A stretch of 64,000 bases of DNA from Callorhinchus milii (Eukaryota): assembly GCF_018977255.1 (NCBI RefSeq), contig NW_024704744.1, positions 27,838,001 through 27,902,000 of the forward strand. Reading direction: 5' to 3'. Below, one piece after another: positions 1,050 through 2,300 of the stretch. Below the pieces are notes generated by a model. That model did not search any database and was not told the DNA's origin. It was given only the letters and a program-made list of their open reading frames with translations. The stretch's first letter is position 1. Each line of letters opens with the position of its first letter. The translations under genes and the position numbers were made by a program.

Positions 1050-2300
1050 TTGTACAGTGAAATCCCTGTAAATATGAAACCTTTGTGTATTTATGTTTGT
1101 TTTAATTTTATTAATATTGTATTGCATTATCGCTCCAGTGTTTACACCCTGGTTGGTGATAAAATGCTTTCTATACTGAATTTGACAAACAGCTACTAAA
1201 GACAAGGCCAATATAGCAATACTGGTACCTTGGGGGAATTGAAATGGCAAACAGATGTTTGATGGTTACCAGGTGCTGCTGGAGCTACTACACATGTGTT
1301 GTTAGTCTAAGAATGGCTGTTTCTCATGTCACACCCTTTATAAGAGAAAATCAGTATCACAGACACCATTTCCTCTAACCTGTTCTGATCTGGATGACAG
1401 CAGAGGATTGTGGCATTTGTTCACAACAGTGCTCTTTATCTGTGGAGATAGCTACAAGTTCAAGTCAAGTACTGACATAAGTGATGACATTTATTTGTCA
1501 TCTCTGGCTCCTACGAATCAACAGGGTCCCATGTTTAGACCAGTTTTTAGAAATGAGTGATTGAAATCCTGGAAGGTTATTTAGAAATTCTTCTCTGAAC
1601 CGATCATTGAAGCTGAAATGTAGCGACAAAATCCCATTCTCAGTGTCTGTCCCTTGTTTTAGCACTCTAACTTGATAATGTTGGACTTTTCCTGTCGTGG
1701 CAAAACCCCATGATAAATACAGTACATATCTTCGCATTCACTGTTATCTAGTTATTATCCGATATTCTACATTGTTTAGTAGGAGTTAAATGACCACCAA
1801 AGGAGAGATTTCAGCACTGGACTCTCTCGTTAGGTGGTATCCACATCCAATTACTATTTTCTTATGTGATGACCCCAAGCCTGCTTTCATGTTTCCTGAT
1901 ATATCAATCCCACTCTTGCTGAATTCTCCAGAGACTGAGGACTGGATTTGACTCTTGCTTTGATGTGAAGTGTGCACCGTACTAACAGCTTCATCACAAC
2001 ACCCATCTAGGGACCTTATCAGAAGTGCAAGAGAGTGCGAGAGGATGAGAGGCACTTGGACTAATTTTAGACAAAGTATATGTGAAGTTTCAGAAAAGAC
2101 AATTAGTGCTGCAATCCCCCAAAAAAGGAATGTCTCCTATCAAGTGTCTCTGTTGAAAACATTGTAAACTTTACAGATCAGACAGTTTCGACACTTGCTG
2201 CACTAATGCAAATTCTTTGGCTATTTGCTATTTTCATGATACTCTTGGTTCAAATTACATCAATCCTGGATATTAATAAATGCCAGTAGAGAATGCTACG
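1050..2300 (-). pseudogene. Decayed MACPF/perforin-like domain coding sequence (multiple stops and frameshifts)
   Basis: ORFs 1786..2055 and 1498..1737 share one frame; ordered motifs ICKVYNVFN, LF*NFTY, a Ser/Gly-rich SSVSGEFSKSGIDISG segment, FREEFLNNLP and HGTLLIRRSQR*QINVITYV; recognised by eye only. Confidence 0.45.

Follow-up and report, generated by a model that had tools for sequence, protein, structure and literature searches.

The window analysed here is the 64,000-nt stretch of contig NW_024704744.1 of Callorhinchus milii that runs from 27,838,001 to 27,902,000 (G000:C3:27,838,001-27,902,000), and positions given below without a contig are counted from its first nucleotide. About 100 kb to the left of the locus lies a Runt-domain gene, which we take to be RUNX2 from its CLIC5 neighbour and whose last exon terminates with VWRPY* close to 27,791,713. 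On the other side, the window holds the last coding exon of CLIC5. According to the mapped positions of these last exons, the locus (856-2456) lies approximately 47 kb beyond the end of the Runx gene and 41 kb beyond that of CLIC5. Clic genes adjoin all three Runx loci (PMC3974841). The interval between both genes had been described as non-repetitive at this point, and this was borne out: no repeats were detected in 856-2456 (264 kb examined), and DNA and protein searches found one copy in the genome. Two tRNA-like heads at 3405-3476 (minus strand) and 413-466 (plus strand) matched Rfam RF00005 with 51.8 and 32.5 bits; located inside repeats, they are likely SINEs flanking the locus.

MACPF proteins contain two helical clusters which refold to membrane-spanning beta-hairpins in an oligomeric pore. 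The preliminary description had read a decayed MACPF gene on the minus strand of this locus from a series of peptide strings resembling the conserved blocks of the family. All of these strings were found where they had been placed, spread over three minus-strand frames (Table 1), and the two open stretches do share one of them, the main frame (1786-2136 from stop to stop, and 1498-1737). Stops in this frame fall at 2142, 2139, 1788, 1746, 1740, 1500 and 1467, the shorter open stretch being closed by a stop where the signature spacing would have its twelfth residue, and an AATAAA is present at 1112-1107 (minus strand), beyond the last motif, a point in favour of a MACPF pseudogene.

Table 1 Features of the RUNX2-CLIC5 intergenic locus and its context in the window
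Feature	Position	Strand	Remarks
Single-copy non-repetitive intergenic stretch, RUNX2-CLIC5	856..2456	.	holds the MACPF-like motifs
Slowly evolving core, candidate constrained non-coding element	1145..1384	.	7 listed X9 substitutions in 240 nt
SEQVRGNG + TW*PSNICLPFQF part	1236..1388	-	third frame; last-4-block chain at chance
TW*PSNICLPFQF	1274-1236	-	third frame
SEQVRGNG	1388-1365	-	third frame
79-aa open stretch (KVQHYQVRV, FREEFLNNLP, HGT)	1498..1737	-	main frame; 0 Pfam matches
HGTLLIRRSQR*QINVITYV	1533-1474	-	main frame
FREEFLNNLP	1599-1570	-	main frame
KVQHYQVRV	1689-1663	-	main frame
116-aa stop-to-stop open stretch	1786..2136	-	main frame; 0 Pfam matches
Ser/Gly-rich alternating-hydrophobic 49-codon stretch	1855..2001	-	resembles a MACPF transmembrane hairpin
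AVSTVHTSHQ...NMKAGLGSS	1989-1867	-	main frame
ICKVYNVFN + LF*NFTY part	2078..2178	-	main and neighbouring frame; GxGY block 6.9 bits in chain test
LF*NFTY	2098-2078	-	second (neighbouring) frame
ICKVYNVFN	2178-2152	-	main frame
CLIC5 last coding exon	43686..43910	-	context; best PDB match CLIC5, E 5.6e-28

Four sequencing runs of one study contained 93-100% of the sampled locus words, and run X5, from another study, was identical over 1042-1208, 1368-1600, 1639-1794 and 1874-2141 (0 differences). Because of this identity the frame breaks are genuine, and assembly error was rejected as the origin of the stops. X5, guessed to be RNA, consisted of four low-depth pieces, all inside 1042-2141, which were uninformative on expression; no RNA run was present among those listed as containing the locus.

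The excess of open frame was borderline. An open stretch as long as the longest observed, or longer, arose in 81/1000 shuffles, and the lowish stop density of the main frame, three stops per 212 codons, was equalled or bettered by 55/1000 (p=0.055), a value that leans towards a former gene. Of all six frames, the main one also looked most like protein (LLR -8.6 versus -17 to -40), which would suit a coding relic of a family other than MACPF. Its amino-acid coding likelihood was within chance, being equalled by 111/1000 shuffles and by 41 of 268 GC-matched real windows, and no codon periodicity was found in it (p=0.28). A motif and open-frame pattern beyond chance was not confirmed.

The preliminary description had proposed that a stop-repaired translation would match the MACPF family. 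HMMER searches of the three minus frames, read with X at stops, and of both open stretches returned no Pfam family, the gathering cut-off of PF01823 (21.5 bits) being reached by 32/32 control proteins. A PDB sequence search of the minus frames, again with X at stops, found no related sequence. In none of these frames was there a significant MACPF match by HMM or BLAST, an outcome that the preliminary description had itself named as refuting its proposal. A phmmer search with the main frame alone (1432-2199) against 1,835,955,588 representative proteins gave 0 matches at E<=1e-3, so that no living relative of a MACPF gene in this frame emerged from the 1.84 billion proteins. The source collection of this library includes vertebrate NCBI proteins, C9-like proteins and perforin among them; the intact fish orthologue suggested earlier was not found in it. 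Word-seeded protein searches (247-788 aa and 180-2000 aa) scored 0 of 1562 and 0 of 50 candidates. No relative of the locus appeared in plasmids, metagenome contigs or viral contigs, and MACPF seeding from plasmids and viral contigs returned nothing. Within the genome itself, DNA and protein searches revealed no paralogue, and the locus was absent among the at least 10 PF01823 matches listed at E<=10. In a tblastn search, 32 bacterial MACPF cores yielded no match at E<=0.05. The best result with the host MPEG1-, BRINP- and ASTN-like exons together with C9-like and perforin proteins had an E of 0.04 and lay on the opposite, wrong strand, and the alignment of one BRINP-like exon with the LP/HGT stretch had an E of 0.27. 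A retrocopy or tandem duplicate was rejected, as no parent was found in the genome.

The power of such searches was simulated with a host MPEG1 exon, decayed, read in its fewest-stop frame and used to seek paralogues 61-63% identical to it. These were recovered in 36/40, 32/40, 18/40 and 3/40 trials at 10, 15, 20 and 30% decay, which makes it unlikely that annotated fishes possess a close and intact orthologue, unless the decay of the locus is 20% or more.

MACPF genes were then gathered by signature scans (32/32 tested passed Pfam) and built into profiles of 32, 77 and 83 sequences; a 36-sequence profile detected PDB MACPF clades and intact members at 24-158 bits. Scored as a whole sequence, the locus frame obtained 2.2, 5.9 and 0.4 bits with the 32-, 77- and 83-sequence profiles (range about -0.3 to 5.9). 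A frameshift-aware alignment gave 21.4, 26.0 and 24.4, respectively, scores reached by 5/1500, 1/1500 and 2/1500 shuffles. The 26.0 of the Ser/Gly-rich amphipathic stretch with the 77-sequence profile (1/1500) is above chance for one 1.3-kb window and counts in favour of a MACPF pseudogene; the chance matches to be expected with the three profiles are 0.8, 0.05 and 0.15 in each window of 64 kb, adding up to tens to hundreds for the 662 annotated windows of the genome. At strict settings the locus topped all controls with the 77- and 83-sequence profiles (0/300 shuffles and 0/398 real windows scoring above it), again in favour of such a gene. Looser gap settings weakened the signal, with 4/300, 27/300 and 19/300 shuffles and 7/398, 30/398 and 33/398 real windows matching the locus score. 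Against the MACPF reading, the signal came wholly from the Ser/Gly stretch at 2001-1855: once this was masked, the score was 13.7, compared to a shuffle mean of 15.7. With a 12-sequence eukaryote-only MACPF profile the locus was at chance (70/300), and HHalign probabilities were 1.1% and 0.1%, with 1 of 218 decoy frames above the former value.

It should be considered that a low score is also what a dead gene may give. Held-out MACPF genes decayed by 15-20% (7 usable out of 23 held-out bacterial loci) had median scores of 17-24, compared to 21.4 for the locus with the same profile, and host MPEG1 half-domains dropped to the level of the locus at 10% decay. Because truly MACPF-encoding sequences decayed to this extent score equally low, an old MACPF pseudogene is retained here as a reading, albeit an unlikely one.

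The order of the motifs was examined by placing the MACPF blocks freely as a chain. With the first seven blocks, the chain chose ICKVYNVFN, the Ser/Gly stretch, FREEFLNNLP and the HGT stretch in one frame, and 2/150 shuffles and 2/136 real windows were as good. This part of the register proposed earlier was thus recovered unprompted, and the ordered GxGY-like, TMH1-like, F..LP and HGT blocks count in favour of a MACPF pseudogene; its remaining part, made of the signature, the second GG and the W..P block, was at chance. The chain of all 10 blocks was equalled by 12/150 shuffles and 10/136 real windows, and that of the last four by 98/150 shuffles, with the signature block scoring -17 bits and the second-hairpin block -8.4. 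The single hairpin candidate (2001-1855) was placed on TMH1 by the block chain and on TMH2 by HMMER, the latter placement clashing with the proposed order. Also rejected was an alternative register that reads the Ser/Gly stretch as TMH2 and takes a following IVIGCG for the second GG, the last-4-block chain being at chance.

The MACPF signature is Y(F)-G-T(S)-H-X7-G-G, and a second glycine pair is followed by a conserved Trp (GGXnW) in these proteins (PMC5483515). The HGT at 1533, taken for the signature in the preliminary description, agrees with it at 2 of 6 positions (G and T), fewer than the 3/6 seen at 15 other places in the region. The proposed second glycine pair reads RGNG instead of GG, and GGXnW is not seen there. 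Spacings also depart from those of the family: HGT and the proposed second GG are 53 codons apart, this distance being at least 60 in 66/68 MACPF members; the LP-to-HGT spacer has 12 residues, compared to at least 14 in 27/27 members; and approximately 40 extra residues separate the hairpin from the next strand. The AlphaFold single-sequence model had a pLDDT of 37, uninformative on a MACPF/CDC fold, with its bent sheet of four strands and two clusters of helices, and too poor for the searches made with it to count (Foldseek, no match at E<=0.001; VIA-align, best Z 5.7, no MACPF among the matches listed).

Compared to the PF01823 family at large (C6-C9, perforin-1, MPEG1, apicomplexan PLP1 and bacterial MACPFs), the locus therefore shares an alternating Ser/Gly stretch like TMH1/TMH2 and loose GxGY, F..LP and GTH look-alikes in the family order, but it differs in having no PF01823 match, in failing to show the signature and GGXnW, and in spacings outside the member ranges. 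Toxin-type animal MACPFs include cnidarian PsTX/AvTX-60 and the apextrins. Compared by description only, proteins of this type would agree with a gene that has few introns, encodes MACPF alone and falls outside C6-C9, PRF1 and MPEG1. Perivitellin-2 and apextrin-type MACPFs carry IMAD or ApeC (PF16977) as a C-terminal accessory domain, of which ApeC was absent at the locus, judging from own-genome matches at E<=10. The 67-kDa chain of snail perivitellin-2 (PV2-67) matches PF01823 at E 7e-24, whereas the locus does not, and the supplements of the same work contain vertebrate hits resembling perivitellin-2, which could be relevant to a MACPF origin (bioRxiv 10.1101/2019.12.23.880021).

Orthologous DNA was found in runs X9 (organism B), X10 (organism C) and X11, from 2 studies, with 5-15 substitutions per 100 nt relative to the locus; the differences listed comprise 40 of 161 substitutions and 12 of 21 indels. 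The 15 X9 substitutions listed in 1432-1608 were distributed 5/5/5 across codon positions, and hence a third-position excess was absent (5/15; p=0.012 if 65% at third positions is assumed). Several non-triplet indels occur in X9 between 1542 and 1750, and net length changes were non-triplet in X9 over 1490-1808 and 1955-2235 and in X10 over 1815-2074. There was no sign of coding constraint at the locus. An old pseudogene would show the same lack of third-position excess and of periodicity. Stops in 1150-1480 had no listed X9 difference in 7/8, 4/5 and 5/6 cases for the three frames, the 4/5 belonging to the third frame (26 of 32 differences in the X9 contig are listed, the others presumably lying near contig ends). 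Since the organism of X9 carries no intact version, any gene here died before the split, and the shared stops together with the neutral divergence fit an old death.

The 3' part of the locus behaved differently. In X9, the proposed MACPF core (1490-1808) diverges faster than the 3' part (47/319 versus 32/469, p=0.0004), a contrast that was not significant in X10 (p=0.23) or X11 (p=0.24). Positions 1145-1384 are slow in X9 (scan p=0.007), flanked by sequence with 11-15 substitutions per 100 nt, and the stop codons in this core are kept in that relative. Neither an RNA structure signal (z 0.09 and 0.58) nor an Rfam family was found in it. Because stops are retained, the core would more likely reflect cis-regulation of RUNX2 or CLIC5, or simply a patch of low mutation, than a protein C-terminus. 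Table S2 of PMC3974841 lists 8 Runx2 CNEs, located upstream or in Supt3h/Runx2 introns and none of them 3' of Runx2; the candidate element at 1145-1384 is absent from that table. It shares with those CNEs the gene neighbourhood and the look of a slow non-coding core, but it lies 3' of RUNX2 and was compared with close relatives only.

Considered together, these results led us to favour, as the probable explanation, non-coding single-copy intergenic DNA in which one Ser/Gly stretch resembles a MACPF hairpin, probably by chance. The 5' two-thirds (about 1490-2235) would drift neutrally, at 8.5-15 substitutions per 100 nt, the slower 3' core may act as a regulatory element of RUNX2 or CLIC5, and the remaining motifs could have been picked from three frames once the Ser/Gly stretch had suggested MACPF. 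The MACPF identity of the locus is unsupported and, on sequence grounds, would more probably be wrong than right.

Next in order, though unlikely, comes an intron-poor MACPF gene once carried by the minus strand and dead before organisms A and B split. For this gene speak the profile score, the seven-block order and the comparison with decayed genes, all given above. Against it stand the dependence of the score on a single stretch, the poor signature, the ten-block result and the reading frame: a gene so long dead should contain several frameshifts in 640 nt, yet from 2136 to 1500 the register can be followed without any, in a part where X9 shows several non-triplet indels. Slightly more doubtful still is that the locus preserves the remains of a vertebrate MACPF lineage distinct from C6-C9, perforin, MPEG1, ASTN and BRINP, without a close living database relative, and that this lineage was lost before the species split from its relatives, with its 3' end kept as constrained non-coding RUNX2-CLIC5 sequence.

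A decayed coding relic of another kind, not MACPF but derived from a different family of beta-pore formers or from the ancient insertion of a virus or mobile element, appears improbable. Such an origin would account for the hairpin-like alternation, the one robust feature of the locus, in a single-copy sequence whose main frame is protein-like. It is opposed by the lack of a match to Pfam families of any sort and of relatives in viral and metagenome contigs or plasmids, by a coding likelihood within chance, and by the absence of the locus among own-genome matches (E<=10) for ETX/MTX2, gasdermin and ApeC (PF03318, PF04598 and PF16977).

In bone and cartilage, RUNX2 is the master gene for mineralisation. 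If the favoured non-coding reading holds, the locus matters little, being intergenic DNA of the usual kind with a single candidate for a regulatory element close to that gene. Were the MACPF reading true, early jawed vertebrates would have possessed a further gene for a pore-forming protein of immune or venom type, additional to the four groups known in humans and later lost, of interest for specialists in perforin and complement evolution; as a single long-dead pseudogene, it would be without a function open to study until an intact orthologue appeared. Our literature searches found no paper on a MACPF gene in the RUNX2-CLIC5 interval; four MACPF groups are listed for humans in PMC5483515, and the literature cited also includes PMC7593815 and PMC11312191.

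Elsewhere in the genome, the PF01823 matches (at least 10 listed) included no clear perforin-1 exon. Exons on G000:C5 (2,665,969-2,674,611 and 7,707,710) and G000:C8 (14,451,055 and 15,144,560) presumably belong to complement C8-type, BRINP-type and astrotactin-type genes, judging from their appearance. Three two-exon genes, on G000:C27 (L002, L312), G000:C51 (L004, L313) and G000:C92 (L005, L314), which we take to be MPEG1-like, are 61-63% identical in their second exon, and the stop flagged inside them appears to be an intron edge. The gasdermin family is present at three separate loci, at 49.35 Mb of G000:C2, 25.31 Mb of G000:C6 and 2.95 Mb of G000:C23.
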